From positions 32,001-96,000 of IMG/VR virus record IMGVR_UViG_3300033143_002031: 64,000 bases of DNA. One strand, written 5' to 3'. Position numbers and translations under genes: made by a program. Numbering within the stretch: position 1 is the stretch's first letter; each line of letters opens with the position of its first letter. The notes beneath the pieces are model-generated. The model was not told the DNA's origin, made no database searches, and worked only from the letters and a program-made list of their open reading frames with translations. Source of the stretch: a virus. This document shows positions 5,817 through 40,094 of this stretch, in pieces.

Positions 5817-6470
5817 ATGAGTTCAACGAAAAGAGGGGGCCAGCGCTCACCCGCAGATCAATATCCCACGCCCCCCTGGTGCGTTCATCGTCTCATGGAC
5901 CGCGTGAAGCTGCCGACCGAGGGCATCTGGTACGAGCCCTGTGCCGGCGACGGCTCGATCATTCAGACCGTCAACACACGAGGCTTCTACCCGGAGTGGT
6001 GGGCGAACGAGCTTCGCGAGGAGGAGAGGCCGAAGCTCACGGTGTCTCTGCCACGTGATGGCACGCTCACCATCGGGGACTACCTGGACCCCGGTCTCCA
6101 ACTGCCGCCTCGTGACCTCGTGACGCTGGTCAAGACGAATCCGCCCTACCGCATTGCGTGGGAGGTGTTGCACAAGAGCCTGCGTGAGTTCCCGCTGGCT
6201 CACATCATGTTGCTCCTGCGGGTAAACTTCATCGCCTCGCAGGCCCGGCACGGCTTCATGAGTCAGTTCATGCCGGATCTGTACGTGCTGCCGAACCGGC
6301 CCGGCTTCAAGGGCTGGGGCAAGACGGATAGCCCGGAATATGGCTGGTTCCACTGGCACCCGAGCCCACGGGCACGCACGCGAGGGGCTATCGAGCTACT
6401 GGAACTGACCTCGAAAGAAGAGCGGAAGCGAGTTCCCGACGCTCCGATCGTCTATCCAGTGGAAGCGTAG
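5817..6470 (+). CDS. DNA N6-adenine methyltransferase
   Basis: SAM-binding EPCAGDG and catalytic TNPPY motifs; N-terminal DQYPTP. Confidence 0.85.
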   Translation: MSSTKRGGQRSPADQYPTPPWCVHRLMDRVKLPTEGIWYEPCAGDGSIIQTVNTRGFYPEWWANELREEERPKLTVSLPRDGTLTIGDYLDPGLQLPPRDLVTLVKTNPPYRIAWEVLHKSLREFPLAHIMLLLRVNFIASQARHGFMSQFMPDLYVLPNRPGFKGWGKTDSPEYGWFHWHPSPRARTRGAIELLELTSKEERKRVPDAPIVYPVEA

Positions 6471-7446: not shown

Positions 7447-7653
7447 GTGGAGACGATGTTGCAGTCGAGGGATGAAGTTCGCGCCCTGTTCGGCGGGGCG
7501 CAGATGCAGACCAAGGACTCGCGGCGGAGCCAGGTCGCCGCTGCGAGCTACCTGTACCAGTTGGCGGAGCAAGTCCGTGATGGCTCGGTGCAGGACTTCG
7601 ATGTCCGGTGGAACGCCGCAGGGGACGTTGAGGCTAGCGTGACGCCCCGGTGA
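7447..7653 (+). CDS. hypothetical protein
   Basis: ORF, codon bias. Confidence 0.55.
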   Translation: METMLQSRDEVRALFGGAQMQTKDSRRSQVAAASYLYQLAEQVRDGSVQDFDVRWNAAGDVEASVTPR

Positions 7654-7679
7654 CAAACTCGGGCGTCCGGAGGAGACAC

Positions 7680-8996
7680 ATGGCGAAACAACCGAAGAAG
7701 AAGCCTGTCGATGACGCTGGTGACCCTCTGTACGACAGCCTGCCAGAGGTTCCGCACAAGACGTCACCGGCCCAGGCAGCCAAGAACGTCCCGGCCAAGG
7801 TGCCGGACCAGCGTCAGAGGTTCGAGGGGGCCTCGATCGAGGGAGACGACCCTCTGAAGGACACTGGTGGGGGCGTGAGCATCCCGGACTACCAGGATGC
7901 CTACCAGCCCCCGAGCGCGCCCAAGACCGTGGAGGACGACTTCCAGGGCGGCGAGACGCGCTCTGCGATCCGTATGGCGTTCATCGGTGCCGGGCAGGGC
8001 GGGGGACGCATCGCCCAGGCGTTCTACGACATGGGCTACCGGCGTGTGATGGTCTGCAACACGACCTCGCAGGACATGGAGTCGCTCACCATCCCGGCGA
8101 AGCTGGTCATCGGCAACGATCGGGGCGGCGCCGGCAAGGACCCCGAGGAGGGAAAACTCGCAGCCCAGGAGTCCTACGAAGACCTCATGGACGCCATGAT
8201 GCGAACCTTCGGCGAGGGCGTGGAGCACGTCTACATCTGCGTGGGTGGTGGGGGAGGCTCAGGCACGGGCTCGTGGCCGGTGCTGCTCGACGCAGCGCGG
8301 GAGTACGCCAAGAGCACGAACATCGAGAAGCCCTTTGGCAAGCACCTCGGCGTGATCATGAGCCTGCCCAAGAGGAGCGAGGGCGCCAGGGTCCAGCGCA
8401 ACTCGCACATTGCGATCACCGACGCGCTGTCGAAGCTCAACCGAGGGCTCATCTCCTCCCTGGTCATCGTGGACAACGCCAAGATCCACGAGCTTTACCC
8501 CGGTCTGCCAGTGAAGCAGTTCTGGACCGTGGCCAACCGCAACTTCGCGGCTGTGCTTCACACGTTCAACCTGCTTGCGGCCAAGGACTCGGAGTACAAC
8601 ACCTTCGACCGGGCCGACCTCCGAAGCGTCGTCCAGAACGGCCTCATGGTCTTCGGCATGACGCGAGTGGAGCGCTGGCAGGGCAAGGATGACATCTCGA
8701 AAGCTGTCCGTCAGAACCTCAAGGGTACGCTCCTCGCGGACGGCTTCGACCTGTCCAAGGCGGATATGGCCGGTGCCATCGTCCTGGCCCATGATGAGAT
8801 CCTGTCCGAGATACCCATGGAGAACATCGACTACGCCTTCAGCAGTCTTGGTCGTGCGTTGGGCAACGAGGGCATCACCCTCCACAACGGCATCTACGAG
8901 AGCAAGGGCCGCGTCTCCATGCGGGTCTTCACGATCATCTCTGGCCTCGAAGCCCCTCAAGAGCGGATCGACGAGCTAGAGCAAGCGGCCCGCTAA
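7680..8996 (+). CDS. tubulin/FtsZ-family GTPase (PhuZ/TubZ-like) with ~95-aa low-complexity N-terminal extension
   Basis: FIGAGQGGGRIA, NT, GAGKDPEEG, GGGGGSGTG signature, NTFDRADL; GGAGG SD before ATG 7680. Confidence 0.92.
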   Translation: MAKQPKKKPVDDAGDPLYDSLPEVPHKTSPAQAAKNVPAKVPDQRQRFEGASIEGDDPLKDTGGGVSIPDYQDAYQPPSAPKTVEDDFQGGETRSAIRMAFIGAGQGGGRIAQAFYDMGYRRVMVCNTTSQDMESLTIPAKLVIGNDRGGAGKDPEEGKLAAQESYEDLMDAMMRTFGEGVEHVYICVGGGGGSGTGSWPVLLDAAREYAKSTNIEKPFGKHLGVIMSLPKRSEGARVQRNSHIAITDALSKLNRGLISSLVIVDNAKIHELYPGLPVKQFWTVANRNFAAVLHTFNLLAAKDSEYNTFDRADLRSVVQNGLMVFGMTRVERWQGKDDISKAVRQNLKGTLLADGFDLSKADMAGAIVLAHDEILSEIPMENIDYAFSSLGRALGNEGITLHNGIYESKGRVSMRVFTIISGLEAPQERIDELEQAAR

Positions 8997-18586: not shown

Positions 18587-18631
18587 TGCCTGTTGCCTAC
18601 ACTTCCCTACAAATCGACACGGGTCCCGCCG

Positions 18632-18708
18632 TTTGCTCTTGACGCTGCCCCCGAAGCGCGATAGGCTGGTATTCAGATGGCGGATGACTTCCGCCAGGGA
18701 GGTACCAG
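18632..18708 (+). promoter_or_regulatory. promoter + 5' hairpin + SD cassette, copy 3
   Basis: TTGACG-N17-TAGGCT; TGGCGGA-TGACT-TCCGCCA; GGAGG. Confidence 0.8.
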
Positions 18709-30890: not shown

Positions 30891-31142
30891 CCTCTGTGGG
30901 GACCCTCGACACGCCGACATGCGCTGCCCGTGCTTTGGGTACTCAGGCGGGGAGTACAGTCCGCCGGCCGAGGCGCAGCACGGCGCCGAGTCGAAGCCCC
31001 AACAGGAGTCCAAGAGCAGGGAGTTTTCCTCCCCGCCAGCCGCGCCGCGCCGACCCTCCGCCAGTCCTCCGGACCCCCAGCACTCATAGCCCCCGCACCC
31101 ACACTGACCTGCCAATCGACACACCTCCGATCTTTTTTCACG

Positions 31143-31218
31143 TTTGCTCTTGACACGAGCCCTCCCCTCGCGTAGGCTGTAAGTGAGGTCGGGGATGAGT
31201 TCCCCGAAGGAGGACAGG
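31143..31218 (+). promoter_or_regulatory. promoter + 5' hairpin + SD cassette, copy 7
   Basis: TTGACA-N17-TAGGCT; TCGGGGA-TGAGT-TCCCCGA; AGGAGG. Confidence 0.8.
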
Positions 31219-34628: not shown

Positions 34629-34831
34629 CCAACAGGCGAAAGCGGGCTGGGCAGACCGTATATCTTGACGAGTCCGGGGAGGAGTACGTGCTTGACGGGG
34701 ACGGCAACCGTCAGCCTCCCATGCAATCTCGTGTCGTATCGAAGCCGGGCGAGTTCACGACCTTCGATGATAGCCAAGGTCACTGCGCTCTGTGCGGACG
34801 CTTGACGTGCCGAGGGGGGTGCTTCAAATGA
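34625..34831 (+). CDS. hypothetical protein
   Basis: ATGA coupling; CALCG..C..C. Confidence 0.55.
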   Translation: MTNRRKRAGQTVYLDESGEEYVLDGDGNRQPPMQSRVVSKPGEFTTFDDSQGHCALCGRLTCRGGCFK

Positions 34832-34899
34832 CCGAGGAGTGCAAGCACGGGAACCAGACCAAGAAACAGGACCCACACCCCGCCAAAGGAAGAGAGACC

Positions 34900-35193
34900 A
34901 TGTTCAAGCCACTGCACGATAGGATCGTGATCAAGCAAGCCGAGGGTGACGAGAAGGTCGGCAGTATCATCATTCCCGACGAGGCTCGTGAGAAGCCGCT
35001 GGAAGGCACCGTGGTCGCTGTAGGGCCTGGCCGCGTGCTGGACACTGGGGAGTGTATCGTGCCCAGCGTGAAGGCGGGGGATACGGTTCTCTTCGCCAAG
35101 TTCACGGGTTCGGAAATCCAGATCGAGGGGGAGACCCACCTCATCGTTCACGAGCCGGACATCCTCGGTATCGTTCACTCGGCAAACTCCTAA
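34900..35193 (+). CDS. groES: co-chaperonin GroES
   Basis: MFKPLHDRIVIK..GSIIIPDEAREKPLEGTVVAVGPG..VKAGDTVLFAKFTGSEI. Confidence 0.95.
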   Translation: MFKPLHDRIVIKQAEGDEKVGSIIIPDEAREKPLEGTVVAVGPGRVLDTGECIVPSVKAGDTVLFAKFTGSEIQIEGETHLIVHEPDILGIVHSANS

Positions 35194-35970: not shown

Positions 35971-36213
35971 ATGGACAAACTCCACCCATCCATGAGCGGC
36001 ATGGAGGATACGATCCTCCACCTACCCGTGCTCAAGATGAGGGCCGAGGTGAACCGGGGCTGGTGGAAGGTCGAGGTCCAGGTGGCGCGGATGGGGCCGT
36101 ACTACAGCGGGAAGAAGAAGGACCGAAGCTACTTCTCGGCCCTGGCCAAGGCGCTCGACGCAGCGATCAAGGAAACGACGCGCTACGGACATGGGTGGGA
36201 CGGCCAGGACTAG
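35971..36213 (+). CDS. hypothetical protein
   Basis: AGGAG SD. Confidence 0.6.
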   Translation: MDKLHPSMSGMEDTILHLPVLKMRAEVNRGWWKVEVQVARMGPYYSGKKKDRSYFSALAKALDAAIKETTRYGHGWDGQD

Positions 36214-36239
36214 CGACCAATGGTCGCAAGGGACGGACG

Positions 36240-36684: not shown

Positions 36685-36736
36685 GCAACAAAGACCACAT
36701 CCTTGTCACATCGAGAAGGCGGAAGCCATCTTGATT

Positions 36737-36765
36737 GGAAAACTCCCGTGACCTCGTGGTATTGT
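36737..36765 (+). promoter_or_regulatory. second-class promoter AAACTC-N14-TAnnnT
   Basis: GGAAAACTCC..TGGTATTGT; same spacing at 39767 and 40631. Confidence 0.55.
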
Positions 36766-36795
36766 GCCCGGTGACGATCGTCACCTGGAGGTCCC

Positions 36796-37326
36796 ATGCA
36801 GGGGTTCGACGCTATCAAGATCAAGACGACTCGCCGTGAAGGCAACCGAGTCACTCTGACCATCGGCGGGGAGATCCTCGGGGGCAGCATCCGGGACCTC
36901 GGAGAGTTCGTCCGCCGCATGAAGCACCTGCACCGCAAGACGATGGGAGCAGCCCCACCGGCCGAGTTCTCTGAGCACGCTTTGTTCACCGAGACCGAGA
37001 GGCAGTCCCTTCGAGAGGTCGCGAAGTACAGGCCGCCAGACCCGACCAAGTTCACGCTGTTGATGTCCGCGCGGTCTGGAAAGATGGTAAAGGATCGCCA
37101 GTACAAGACCTTCAAGGCTGCGGAAACGGCACTGAGGAAAGCGATCAAGCGCGACCTCATGACCAGCAAGAATGACCTCTACCGCGTCCAACTGTGGTCC
37201 CCCGAGAAGCCAGGTCCGCAGACCAGGGTCGCCTCGTACAGCACGGACTATCGGCCCACATCGAGCAGCGTGTGGTACAAGCGCGACGAGCACGGCCATA
37301 AGACGATGTTCAAGGTCTACTCGTGA
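36796..37326 (+). CDS. putative head-packaged protein with internal LFT..LRE leader motif
   Basis: ALFTETERQSLRE/V; GGAGG SD. Confidence 0.7.
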   Translation: MQGFDAIKIKTTRREGNRVTLTIGGEILGGSIRDLGEFVRRMKHLHRKTMGAAPPAEFSEHALFTETERQSLREVAKYRPPDPTKFTLLMSARSGKMVKDRQYKTFKAAETALRKAIKRDLMTSKNDLYRVQLWSPEKPGPQTRVASYSTDYRPTSSSVWYKRDEHGHKTMFKVYS

Positions 37327-37760
37327 AAACTCTCTTCACGGAAGGCGAGCGCCTCGGGCTTCGAGAGGCGAGGCAGACCAAGGTCTTTGGCAACGCCATG
37401 GGGCTCGTGGTCCGTAAGAGCAGCTATCCCGAGTCATTCGTGCGGCGCGGGCTCGACCTGAGAGAGCCGTTCACGGGCTACACCGTCAGCACACCAAAGC
37501 CTCACGACACCTTTCTCGGTGTCGTCGTGAAGAAGGGGAAGCAGTGGCACTATGCGGCGTCCCCTCGATACAAGACGGTGGCTAGGCGGGGTGCGATGCC
37601 GGCCCTCAAAGGGCTCGTCACGCGCTACATCACAGGCGTCATCGACAACGAGCTACGCATGAGCGATGGCACTCTGGACGGCGCGATCGAAGGGCTCGGC
37701 TGTCACATCCTCCAGCGACTTGCTCATGAGTGGGGCATCGTGAAGGAGTACGAACGATGA
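37323..37760 (+). CDS. leader-tagged putative head-packaged protein
   Basis: MKTLFTEGERLGLRE/A. Confidence 0.75.
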   Translation: MKTLFTEGERLGLREARQTKVFGNAMGLVVRKSSYPESFVRRGLDLREPFTGYTVSTPKPHDTFLGVVVKKGKQWHYAASPRYKTVARRGAMPALKGLVTRYITGVIDNELRMSDGTLDGAIEGLGCHILQRLAHEWGIVKEYER

Positions 37761-38785
37761 GGAAAACTCTCTTCACGAGGTCCAAGAGGCGAACCCTGAA
37801 GGAAGAGGCGGCCGGCGTCCCCCGTGCGATCGACATCATGGGGCAGTCCAAGGGGCTCTCCTACAAGGGGGCAACCATCGGCCGCATCCCGAACGCCTAC
37901 GTGGTCTACGCCACCAAGACGGACGGGGAGAAGACCGAGGTCGCCCGGTACTACTTCCAGGACGACAAGGCACGGGCGAAGCGCCACGCGAAGTGGGATG
38001 CCGAGAGCACCCTGAAGTCCCTGAAGCGCACTCTCGGTCTGTCCGAGGCGACCTATGAGGTGGATGCGAAAGCTCGGGCCGAGGCCAACCGTATCTGGGA
38101 CTCGATCATCTCCTACGTGAGGGGCCTCGACGGGGACTATGATTCGGTGGTCTGGACCCGCGACGGCATGATGACGATCTACCCGGTGCACACCAAGGTC
38201 CCCTACGGCATGAAGGTGTACCTTGGGCCACGGGGGATGACATCGGGCTACGGGACCGGCTCGCAGGGTAACGTCCTGGTCATCGGCAGCGTACTGTTGC
38301 ACCCGAAGGACACGACGTACCTCGACACTCGCATCACGTCCGCCTCGCTCAGGCATACGTTCGTCCACGAGTACGTTCACCACCTCGATCACATGCGTCG
38401 AGGAAAACTCCCGGACCGGCACGCCATGAGGGCTGCTCACGCTGGTGACATCGCGGGCTACCTCCGCACGCCCGAGGAGTTCAACGCCTGGTATCAGGAA
38501 ACGGCGCAGGCGGCAGAGGACAGCATCGCCGGAAAGATCAAGGTCATCGAGAGGTTCCGCTCGGTGGGCAAGGACGCGCTCGTCGTGAAGGTGGTGGCAG
38601 CCCTCCATCGGGACGTTGCCTCGTTCCCCGCGTTCCTGAAGTTCGTGGAGAAGCACAACGAGGCCGGGGACACCCTCGCGGTGCTGAAGGGCTCGAAGTG
38701 GGAGCGGAAGTGGCTCAAGCGGATGCACACGCTCTACCGGGGCCTGAAGCCGAAGGTGATGTCCATGTCGGCGGGGTCCAAGTGA
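37757..38785 (+). CDS. leader-tagged protein with HExxH zincin metalloprotease-like motif
   Basis: MRKTLFTRSKRRTLKE/E; TFVHEYVHHLD..EFNAW. Confidence 0.7.
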   Translation: MRKTLFTRSKRRTLKEEAAGVPRAIDIMGQSKGLSYKGATIGRIPNAYVVYATKTDGEKTEVARYYFQDDKARAKRHAKWDAESTLKSLKRTLGLSEATYEVDAKARAEANRIWDSIISYVRGLDGDYDSVVWTRDGMMTIYPVHTKVPYGMKVYLGPRGMTSGYGTGSQGNVLVIGSVLLHPKDTTYLDTRITSASLRHTFVHEYVHHLDHMRRGKLPDRHAMRAAHAGDIAGYLRTPEEFNAWYQETAQAAEDSIAGKIKVIERFRSVGKDALVVKVVAALHRDVASFPAFLKFVEKHNEAGDTLAVLKGSKWERKWLKRMHTLYRGLKPKVMSMSAGSK

Positions 38786-39141
38786 AAACTCTCTTCACCG
38801 AGGCCGAGCGAGCCGCCCTCTTGGAGGGCACCATCTGGCATCCGAGTCGCTCTTCGAGAAAACGGATGCGGCGCGTGCCCGGCCCGATCACGGACCCGAA
38901 CGAGGAGCCGCTGGGGTACAAGGTCGTGGGTTCGACCCTCTATGGCCGCGCGAGAGTCGTGTTGGACGGCCGGCGTATGATCCGGATTTACGAGTGGATC
39001 GACACCATGGGCTCAGAGGGCGGCCACGGGTGGAGGAAGGTCAAGAGGAAGGCCGAGCGGAACGAGGTGAAGAAGGCCCCGGGCAAGTGGGTCGACTTCA
39101 AGCCTGCGCTGGCTGCCTATCGGAAGGTCTACGAGCCATGA
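38782..39141 (+). CDS. leader-tagged putative head-packaged protein
   Basis: MKTLFTEAERAALLE/G. Confidence 0.75.
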   Translation: MKTLFTEAERAALLEGTIWHPSRSSRKRMRRVPGPITDPNEEPLGYKVVGSTLYGRARVVLDGRRMIRIYEWIDTMGSEGGHGWRKVKRKAERNEVKKAPGKWVDFKPALAAYRKVYEP

Positions 39142-39737
39142 GGAAAACTCTCTTCACGGCGGCGCAGCGGGTGGCTCTGAGGGAGTCGGCAGGTGACCCG
39201 TTCGTTGGCCTATCGCCTGAGCTACAGGAAGCGATGCGTCGGTTCGCGGAGCACCTCGCCTTTTGGATGGGCAACACCAGCAAGTACAGCGTCAAGGAAC
39301 TGCTCAAGATCTGGAAGGACAGCCCCGAGTTGCGAGCGTGGCTCAAGCGCCACGTCAACCTGGCGTCCTACACGCTCTACTACGGCACCACGACCAACGA
39401 TCGAAAGCTCCACGTAGGGGCCGCATGGAAGGGACCATCGGGCACTCAGCACTGGAGCACCGACCCTCATCGGTCGAGAGGGTTCGCAGGGCTCAATGGC
39501 AGGGTTGGGGGCTGGCCCAAGCCAGGTGGTGTACTCGTGCAGGCCCATGCGGCAGCGGCAGCGGTGATCGTTGACGTGGACCGTTTCAGCCACGTCTGCG
39601 GTCTGCACCGCGCCTCGTTCTCGAAGCTCATGACCAAGAACGACCCGAAGGAGATGTTCAGCGGCGAAGCCTACGAGGCCGAGGTGATAACGACCTCTGC
39701 CGTCAAGGGGAAGGTCACCGAGGTCGAGTGGTTCTGA
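39138..39737 (+). CDS. leader-tagged ADP-ribosyltransferase-like protein
   Basis: MRKTLFTAAQRVALRE/S; TLYYG..HWSTDP..FA..YEAEV resembles the R-STS-ExE ART core. Confidence 0.5.
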   Translation: MRKTLFTAAQRVALRESAGDPFVGLSPELQEAMRRFAEHLAFWMGNTSKYSVKELLKIWKDSPELRAWLKRHVNLASYTLYYGTTTNDRKLHVGAAWKGPSGTQHWSTDPHRSRGFAGLNGRVGGWPKPGGVLVQAHAAAAAVIVDVDRFSHVCGLHRASFSKLMTKNDPKEMFSGEAYEAEVITTSAVKGKVTEVEWF

Positions 39738-39746
39738 TCAACCCCG

Positions 39747-39776
39747 TGCGACCAATGGTCGCACCTGGAAAACTCC
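39747..39776 (+). repeat. 30-bp direct repeat, copy 1 (operator + AAACTCC box)
   Basis: TGCGACCAATGGTCGCACCTGGAAAACTCC, identical at 40065-40094. Confidence 0.9.
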
Positions 39777-39802
39777 CCGGCCCCCGTGGTACAGTCCCCC
39801 TC

Positions 39803-40054
39803 ATGAAGACGATCTTCACCGAGGCAGCGCGCCAGGCGCTTTATGAGGCGGCCCCTGTGATGGTGACAGTACCTTCGTTGCTGCTCTACCTGAAGCGGGA
39901 AAAGCAGCGTCTAAACGTCGGAATTACAAGTCTAAAACCGACCCAGCGGAAACAAGTGGAGCACACCATTTCGGTCCTCGACAGGATGATCGAGACGGTC
40001 GAGAAGTACAGCAAAAGTGGTAACCACGGAAGCCTGACCTTTCACCGTCCGTGA
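39803..40054 (+). CDS. leader-tagged putative head-packaged protein
   Basis: MKTIFTEAARQALYE/A; leaderless from TACAGT -10; AT-richer codons. Confidence 0.7.
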   Translation: MKTIFTEAARQALYEAAPVMVTVPSLLLYLKREKQRLNVGITSLKPTQRKQVEHTISVLDRMIETVEKYSKSGNHGSLTFHRP

Positions 40055-40064
40055 GCAGCCCTCC

Positions 40065-40094
40065 TGCGACCAATGGTCGCACCTGGAAAACTCC
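40065..40094 (+). repeat. 30-bp direct repeat, copy 2
   Basis: Identical to 39747-39776. Confidence 0.9.

Follow-up and report, generated by a model that had tools for sequence, protein, structure and literature searches.

What does a short peptide do that six genes encoding unrelated proteins all carry? The question is raised by a cassette at positions 36796-40054 of a 64,000-nucleotide stretch of viral DNA (the window; bases 32001-96000 of the 184.7-kb virus record IMGVR_UViG_3300033143_002031), in which six plus-strand genes, here termed A-F, share a leader of the form M-(R)-K-T-L-F-T-x3-R-x2-L-x-E. A preliminary description of this DNA likened the leader to the capsid-targeting sequence (CTS) of the phage T4 internal proteins, proposing that it is a modular address label for loading cargo into the head and that it could be a new cargo-loading tag. 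On the evidence of sequence comparisons, the leader is, with a probability of roughly 0.65, a lineage-specific capsid-targeting propeptide that would be removed by the head protease of the phage.

Six copies of one leader on unrelated bodies

The leader is present in six in-frame copies within 3.1 kb, five of them at the starts of B, C, D, E and F, where they are 15-16 residues long, and one internal to A (Table 1); all six are where the preliminary description had placed them. A degenerate DNA pattern of the core F-T-x3-R-x2-L-x-E matches six times in the 64-kb window against an expectation of 0.10, with no match elsewhere in the window, and none of 100 shuffled windows reached six matches. 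When a profile of the six leaders was run against a six-frame translation of the whole 184.7-kb genome, the same six copies ranked top (E-values of 6.5e-7 to 1e-4), and hits 7 and 8 were gene starts that resemble the leader less strongly and lie shortly before the window, at genome positions 28297 and 30373. The second of these belongs to a 671-residue protein that has a HEIGH zinc-peptidase-like motif and scores below the Pfam thresholds.

Beyond the leader, the bodies of A-F are mutually dissimilar in an all-against-all BLAST comparison, and searches of Pfam and PHROGs with the six cassette proteins and four neighbours gave no match. Genes A-E are linked by ATGA or GTGA start/stop overlaps, and F comes after a palindrome and a promoter-like element. 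The leaders of the preliminary description stand, and its gene models are refined by GTG starts for B and D, by the overlap chain from A to E and by the two-module architecture of A and C. The body of A has a homologue in the C-terminal part of P0012, a protein in which a full leader, in frame, and another upstream module precede it, and the first module of C ends in L-S-E directly before a HExxH body. The sole relative of B that was found (P0018) shares 58% identity and has a variant leader and an identical junction; no relatives of cargo D were found. The public gene call for D, a 91-residue product, begins at an internal Met and leaves out the leader with its GTG start, a copy that automatic annotation would hide.

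Table 1. Coordinates of the cassette genes, their leaders and associated elements, given as window positions unless marked as genome positions (pI, isoelectric point).
Feature	Position	Strand	Description
Promoter-like element	36736..36769	+	AAACTCC, ~10 nt, extended -10; ahead of A; repeat family D2
Gene A	36796..37326	+	176 residues: 62-residue N-terminal module, internal leader, 102-residue basic body (pI 10.2)
Internal leader in A	36976-37017	+	residues 63-76
Gene B	37323..37760	+	145 residues; GTG start overlaps stop of A (GTGA); body pI 9.9
Leader of B	37323-37367	+	
Gene C	37757..38785	+	342 residues
Leader of C	37757-37804	+	
Module 1 of C	37805-38047	+	81 residues
HExxH body of C	38048-38782	+	
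Gene D	38782..39141	+	119 residues; GTG start overlaps stop of C; body pI 10.5
Leader of D	38782-38826	+	
Gene E	39138..39737	+	199 residues; ATG overlaps stop of D
Leader of E	39138-39185	+	
Palindrome GCGACCAATGGTCGCA	39748..39763	.	16 nt; between E and F; repeat families D4, D6; inverted repeats I1/I3
Second promoter-like element	39766..39799	+	same class; -10 ends 7 nt before ATG of F
Gene F	39803..40054	+	83 residues; best leader-profile hit; body pI 10.2
Leader of F	39803-39847	+	
Looser leader (F-T-E-A-Q-R...L-x-E)	genome 28297-28533		gene start
Looser leader (F-T-E-A-Q-R...L-x-E)	genome 30373-32385 (ends at window 385)		671-residue protein directly upstream of the 1038-residue polyprotein

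Leader arrays in related contigs

Among metagenome contigs, the leader pattern identified ten high-GC contigs that carry arrays, the largest of which (L029) has seven leader genes in 3.1 kb. Two degenerate leader patterns gave no match in a viral contig collection from which the window's own record was excluded, and in bacterial and archaeal genome contigs the seven matches, all bacterial, isolated and unrelated, are close to the chance expectation and form no arrays. The start of a HAD-type phosphatase on an Oxalobacteraceae contig (L043:991-1035) fits the leader well, in a single copy with no array, and is judged to be a coincidental match that the pattern search picked out.

The 29 leader copies in relatives sit on 19 unrelated body families, which are mostly basic, and the neighbours of leader genes vary from one relative to the next. 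Body-to-body alignments begin at the first residue past the Glu of L-x-E, which, together with the all-against-all comparison, bears out the earlier claim that the bodies are unrelated and that homology ends at this motif. L-x-E is present in all 39 distinct copies collected and is always followed by Ala, Ser, Val, Glu or Gly; the regular expression used for this collection required L-x-E, and a profile search gave the identical set. The residue after the motif among the 29 copies of the relatives is Ala in 16, Ser in six, Val in three, Glu in three and Gly in one.

Three relatives in the family of cargo E have body identities of 66-81% and leaders that differ at every non-core position; a direct search of the viral contig collection found no relatives of E. 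The wordings of leaders have apparently been swapped between adjacent genes in relatives, and internal copies join shuffled modules in P0008, P0010 and P0012 as well as in A.

The junction in the family of cargo C

Homologues of the body of C begin at an identical A-T-Y in several contexts: behind variously worded copies of the cassette leader; behind a 9-residue leader in G001, a phage that encodes an S77 protease of its own and uses this leader on a neighbouring gene as well; behind a 37-residue extension ending in L-G-E; and, in the phage studied here, behind the internal L-S-E that closes an extra 81-residue module. In G001, the C homologue and the other gene that carries this short leader are part of the virion module, with the head-tail adaptor on one side and the tail sheath on the other. 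The 81-residue module of C and the body of A recur in other combinations, joined by in-frame leaders (P0010 and P0012), and in P0008 an internal leader connects a C body with a further module.

The body of C was considered as a candidate zincin-type metallopeptidase, for which HExxH with a third ligand further downstream and a zincin fold would be expected. Across 10 sequences of the family, HExxH..D and E-F-N-A do not vary; cargo C has no Pfam match, and residues L95, E97, A98, H204, E205, H208 and D211 are invariant in alignment A2. An AlphaFold model of C has a predicted local distance difference test (pLDDT) score of 79 and falls below 50 only at residues 1-33 and 92-98, which are the leader region and the internal junction; the model has no significant Foldseek match, and VIA-align returned only generic helical matches. 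A profile of the C family found nothing in bacterial and archaeal genome contigs, and a tblastn search of cultured and GenBank phages with the C body yielded a single hit, which was weak and unannotated.

More distant homologues of C, in AT-rich phage fragments, carry leaders of 8-10 residues ending in [LI]-x-E; that of L039 closely resembles the T4 tag and has the same junction. Three to five adjacent genes share each phage's own leader in L031, L035 and L038. Peptidase_S77 was not found in five of these distant fragments with C homologues, which are only 7-29% complete, so that this absence carries no weight. The AT-rich viral contigs L031, L034, L035 and L038 each have their own short [LI]-x-E leader family on 2-5 neighbouring unrelated genes, and a likeness to the classical T4 tag is seen in the leaders of L038 and L039.

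Selection on codons and on the peptide

Codon usage was analysed in 26 distinct DNA copies of the leader from this phage and its relatives. At codon 2, 22 of 23 copies have AAA, and at codon 3, 21 of 23 have ACT, despite a G+C content at third codon positions (GC3) of approximately 0.8, and this nearly fixed AAA-ACT, seen in the window and in L016-L030, points to a constraint on the start region of the mRNA. The initial A of the AAA doubles as the last letter of the upstream TGA, and the leaders of B, C, D and E have 15 identical nt in common. From codon 4 onwards, the codons for Leu, Thr, Glu and Arg vary synonymously while the residues stay fixed, so that the leader is, on its codon pattern, under selection as a peptide. 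The internal copies in A, P0008 and P0010 lack M-K-T and its codons and keep L/V-F-T-x3-R-x2-L-x-E, by which the part linked to the start can be distinguished from the peptide core. A 9-mer within the leaders of C and E, GGAAAACTC, is also the upstream box of the promoters at this locus, either by coincidence or as a shared site.

A head protease of the gp21 family

The 185-kb genome is that of a T4-type phage with a head protease of the gp21 family. Its Peptidase_S77 domain (PF03420, the T4 gp21 family) scores 69.7 bits against a cut-off of 27 and is fused to a long helical C-terminal part, and the gene (genome 154019-155722) is flanked by those for the portal and a gp23-type major head protein, as assigned with PHROGs; tail sheath and tail tube genes are also encoded. 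Because Peptidase_S77 is encoded, the family of proteases that in T4 cuts after L/I-X-E (PMC9026906) is available in this phage. The major head protein has an L-x-E approximately 20 residues ahead of its conserved mature core, which is the expected maturation site and is kept in the relative G001.

Properties of the cargo

The bodies behind the leader have a median pI of 9.7, and 18 of 23 lie above 8, compared with 37% of similar-size proteins in the genome (p = 6.6e-5); all six bodies of the window fall between 9.4 and 10.5. Body lengths range from 68 to 326 residues. Among the cargo families of relatives, one attains the Pfam cut-off for a GNAT acetyltransferase. Cargo E contains strings that by eye resemble motifs of ADP-ribosyltransferases of the T4 Alt type; it has no Pfam match, PDB profile and Atlas searches gave no convincing match, and its structural model (pLDDT 37.5) is unusable, leaving this identity as a lead only. 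An anti-defence role for the cargo is purely conjectural.

Promoters and palindromes

The promoter-like elements ahead of A and F belong to an AAACTCC class that occurs three times in the whole genome, always at this locus (window 36740, 39770 and 40634). The class is conserved before cassette genes in relatives (L018:1336, plus strand; L026:3540 and L027:905, minus strand), and the arrangement before F is also seen ahead of the gene in the F position of L027. Since in five of six cases only 6-7 nt separate the end of this class's -10 from the ATG, leaderless or near-leaderless mRNAs are predicted at the cassette promoters. In G001, the place of the C homologue in the virion module fits late expression there.

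Identical copies of the palindrome GCGACCAATGGTCGCA lie at 36213-36228, at 40066-40081 and near genome position 157390, after the major head protein gene. The palindrome is found at gene ends, twice directly before a promoter-like element. As it has no T-run, a role as a binding site for a protein or as an RNA hairpin would be more plausible than one as an intrinsic terminator.

Ahead of many small genes across the genome lie sigma-70-like promoters with a TTGAC -35 element; a strong sigma-70-like class (GTTTGCTCTTGAC, 17 nt, TAGGCT) is seen before such genes at many intergenic sites, such as 14880-14970, 18620-18700 and 31090-31180. GTGGTA was considered as a mark of late genes and rejected, as it is an extended -10 that occurs with and without a -35 element. 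The window also encodes a TubZ/PhuZ-type tubulin (Pfam Tubulin and TubZ-like_C), a ParB-like protein and a DNA methyltransferase (loci 7650-8996, 16612-17550 and 5817-6470), and the gene at 34792-35193 resembles, by eye only, a GroES-type co-chaperonin.

Comparison with known packaging systems

The load-and-clip principle of T4 has been known since the 1990s. T4 internal proteins have propeptides of 10-19 residues that gp21 cuts after L/I-X-E, the first 10 residues of IPIII are enough for head loading, and such propeptides load foreign proteins (PMC9026906, PMC8442874). The internal proteins of T-even phages are diverse, having only the targeting sequence in common (PMC3012670, PMC9026906), and those of T4 are highly basic (PMC8442874). 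Like the gp21-cut CTS of IPI, IPII, IPIII and the Alt propeptide, the leader described here is a short N-terminal peptide ending in L/I-x-E, which begins with M-K-T and a hydrophobic residue and is found with diverse basic cargo and a gp21-family protease; in both systems the cargo genes are non-core and vary between relatives. At the level of sequence, the general features of the T4 CTS class are found in the leader, and its resemblance to the T4 tag itself is confined to the two ends. It differs in its 15-16 residues and its core L-F-T-x3-R-x2-L-x-E, in its larger tandem arrays (six here and seven in L029), in its use as an internal joint of multi-module proteins and in belonging to a high-GC clade. 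The suggestion of a new cargo-loading tag holds to the extent that core, length, array size and internal use are not those of the T4 tag; the principle is already described in reviews of the T4 internal proteins (PMC3012670, PMC9026906), and the leader is not a new kind of device.

In the giant phages phiKZ, 201phi2-1 and SPN3US, a diverged homologue of gp21 likewise cuts many head-internal proteins after Glu, and the propeptides contain multiple sites (PMC9026906). Unlike the cassette, these phages have no single portable leader in common; their motif is S/A-x-E, with Ser or Ala instead of Leu or Ile at P3, and their proteins form large paralogous families rather than small cassettes. The T4 core proteins gp22, gp67 and gp68 offer a parallel in which internal L/I-x-E sites divide one product, as is proposed for A, C, P0008, P0010 and P0012, but the T4 scaffold is degraded to peptides and expelled, whereas the segments here appear from modelling to be folded, shuffled modules.

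The preliminary description also linked the leader to the L-x-E linkers of the 1038-residue protein of the same genome (348-3464). This protein has basic modules and a linker ending in L-D-E followed by a small residue, and to this extent the motif is shared. The link does not go beyond the motif: the linker is a different, repeated acidic peptide that lacks the L-F-T...R core, one gene encodes the whole series of modules in place of separate coupled genes, and no homology was found between these modules and the cassette bodies.

Interpretation of the leader

The portability of the leader across 19 body families, its fixed junction and the gp21-family protease uphold the comparison with a modular label of the T4 CTS type, and they stand beside the repetition of the leader and the basic character of its cargo. 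In such a system, the core L-F-T-x3-R would bind a component of the prohead core, by which the carrier protein would be built into the head; the gp21-family protease would cut after the terminal L-x-E; and the freed, basic mature protein would remain with the DNA and probably be delivered into the next host. Internal leaders and plain L-x-E sites would serve as cleavable joints in two-module proteins, and the leader, because it is the only sequence common to the cargo genes, would probably double as a recombination joint for swapping them.

Several observations weigh against a capsid-targeting propeptide. The cassette is located among small non-structural genes, L-x-E is short and frequent in any proteome, and the leader resembles the T4 tag only at its M-K-T start and L-x-E end, with a middle that cannot be aligned. 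The co-occurrence of leader and protease is known from one genome only, to which G001 adds a case with an alternative leader. A T4-type late promoter motif (TATAAATA-type) was not found in the genome, and the cassette's own promoter class could be early, middle or late.

An unlikely explanation is that the leader is a docking or regulatory peptide unrelated to the capsid (for example a handle recognized by a common chaperone, a partner protein or a target in the host, or else a signal for degradation or timing) and that L-x-E is a coincidence of helix-forming residues. Conservation at the peptide level suits any protein-protein interface, and the locus has its own promoter class and non-structural neighbours, among them the co-chaperonin-like gene. 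This explanation does not account for the identical first residue of one body behind unrelated [LI]-x-E leaders in different phages, for the internal copies at module borders, for the basic cargo or for the G001 genes in the virion module. It is less probable still that the nucleic acid is what is conserved, as a translation-start or coupling module and/or a recombination site, with the peptide as a passenger. The near-invariant AAA and ACT codons in a GC3-rich setting, the 15 identical nucleotides in B-E, the ATGA/GTGA coupling of A-E and the apparent exchange of leader wordings between neighbours all speak for such a layer, but past codon 3 the synonymous sites vary freely while Phe, Thr, Arg, Leu and Glu are fixed, and the internal copies drop AAA-ACT and keep the peptide core. 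Since the core is kept without the start codons, the nucleic-acid layer is best regarded as real but additional, and not as the whole explanation.

The idea that A-F are diverged tandem paralogues, in which only the N-terminus is still recognizable, would fit their tandem arrangement on one strand, similar small size and basic charge. It is very improbable in view of the lack of BLAST similarity between the bodies, the spread of their lengths and the 19 body families in relatives, which include a GNAT acetyltransferase and the HExxH protein; moreover, the same body occurs with quite different leaders, and in the family of cargo E the leader evolves faster than the body at its non-core positions.

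A broader and more tentative proposal extends the capsid-targeting propeptide to a joint of four parts: an mRNA start signal (AAA-ACT), a head address (L-F-T-x3-R), a protease site (L-x-E) and a patch of homology for exchange. Modules would then be exchanged, fused into polyproteins or split again through the leader, and the locus would be a gene-cassette system for capsid cargo, with its own promoter class and near-leaderless mRNAs; each T4-type lineage would have evolved a tag to match its own scaffold.

Significance

As the load-and-clip principle is long known for T4, a capsid-targeting role of the leader would not open a new field. It would mean that the leader and the L-x-E rule mark the virion-delivered proteins of a whole uncultured clade of high-GC phages, and would provide a ready list of candidate first-strike proteins to screen against defence systems, among them the HExxH protein and an acetyltransferase encoded by relatives. 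How sets of cargo evolve is illustrated by modules that are shuffled among separate genes and polyproteins. If the leader is indeed such a propeptide, the T4 principle would be general, with a tag of its own in each lineage, and the engineering of phages that infect other hosts would gain new packaging tags.

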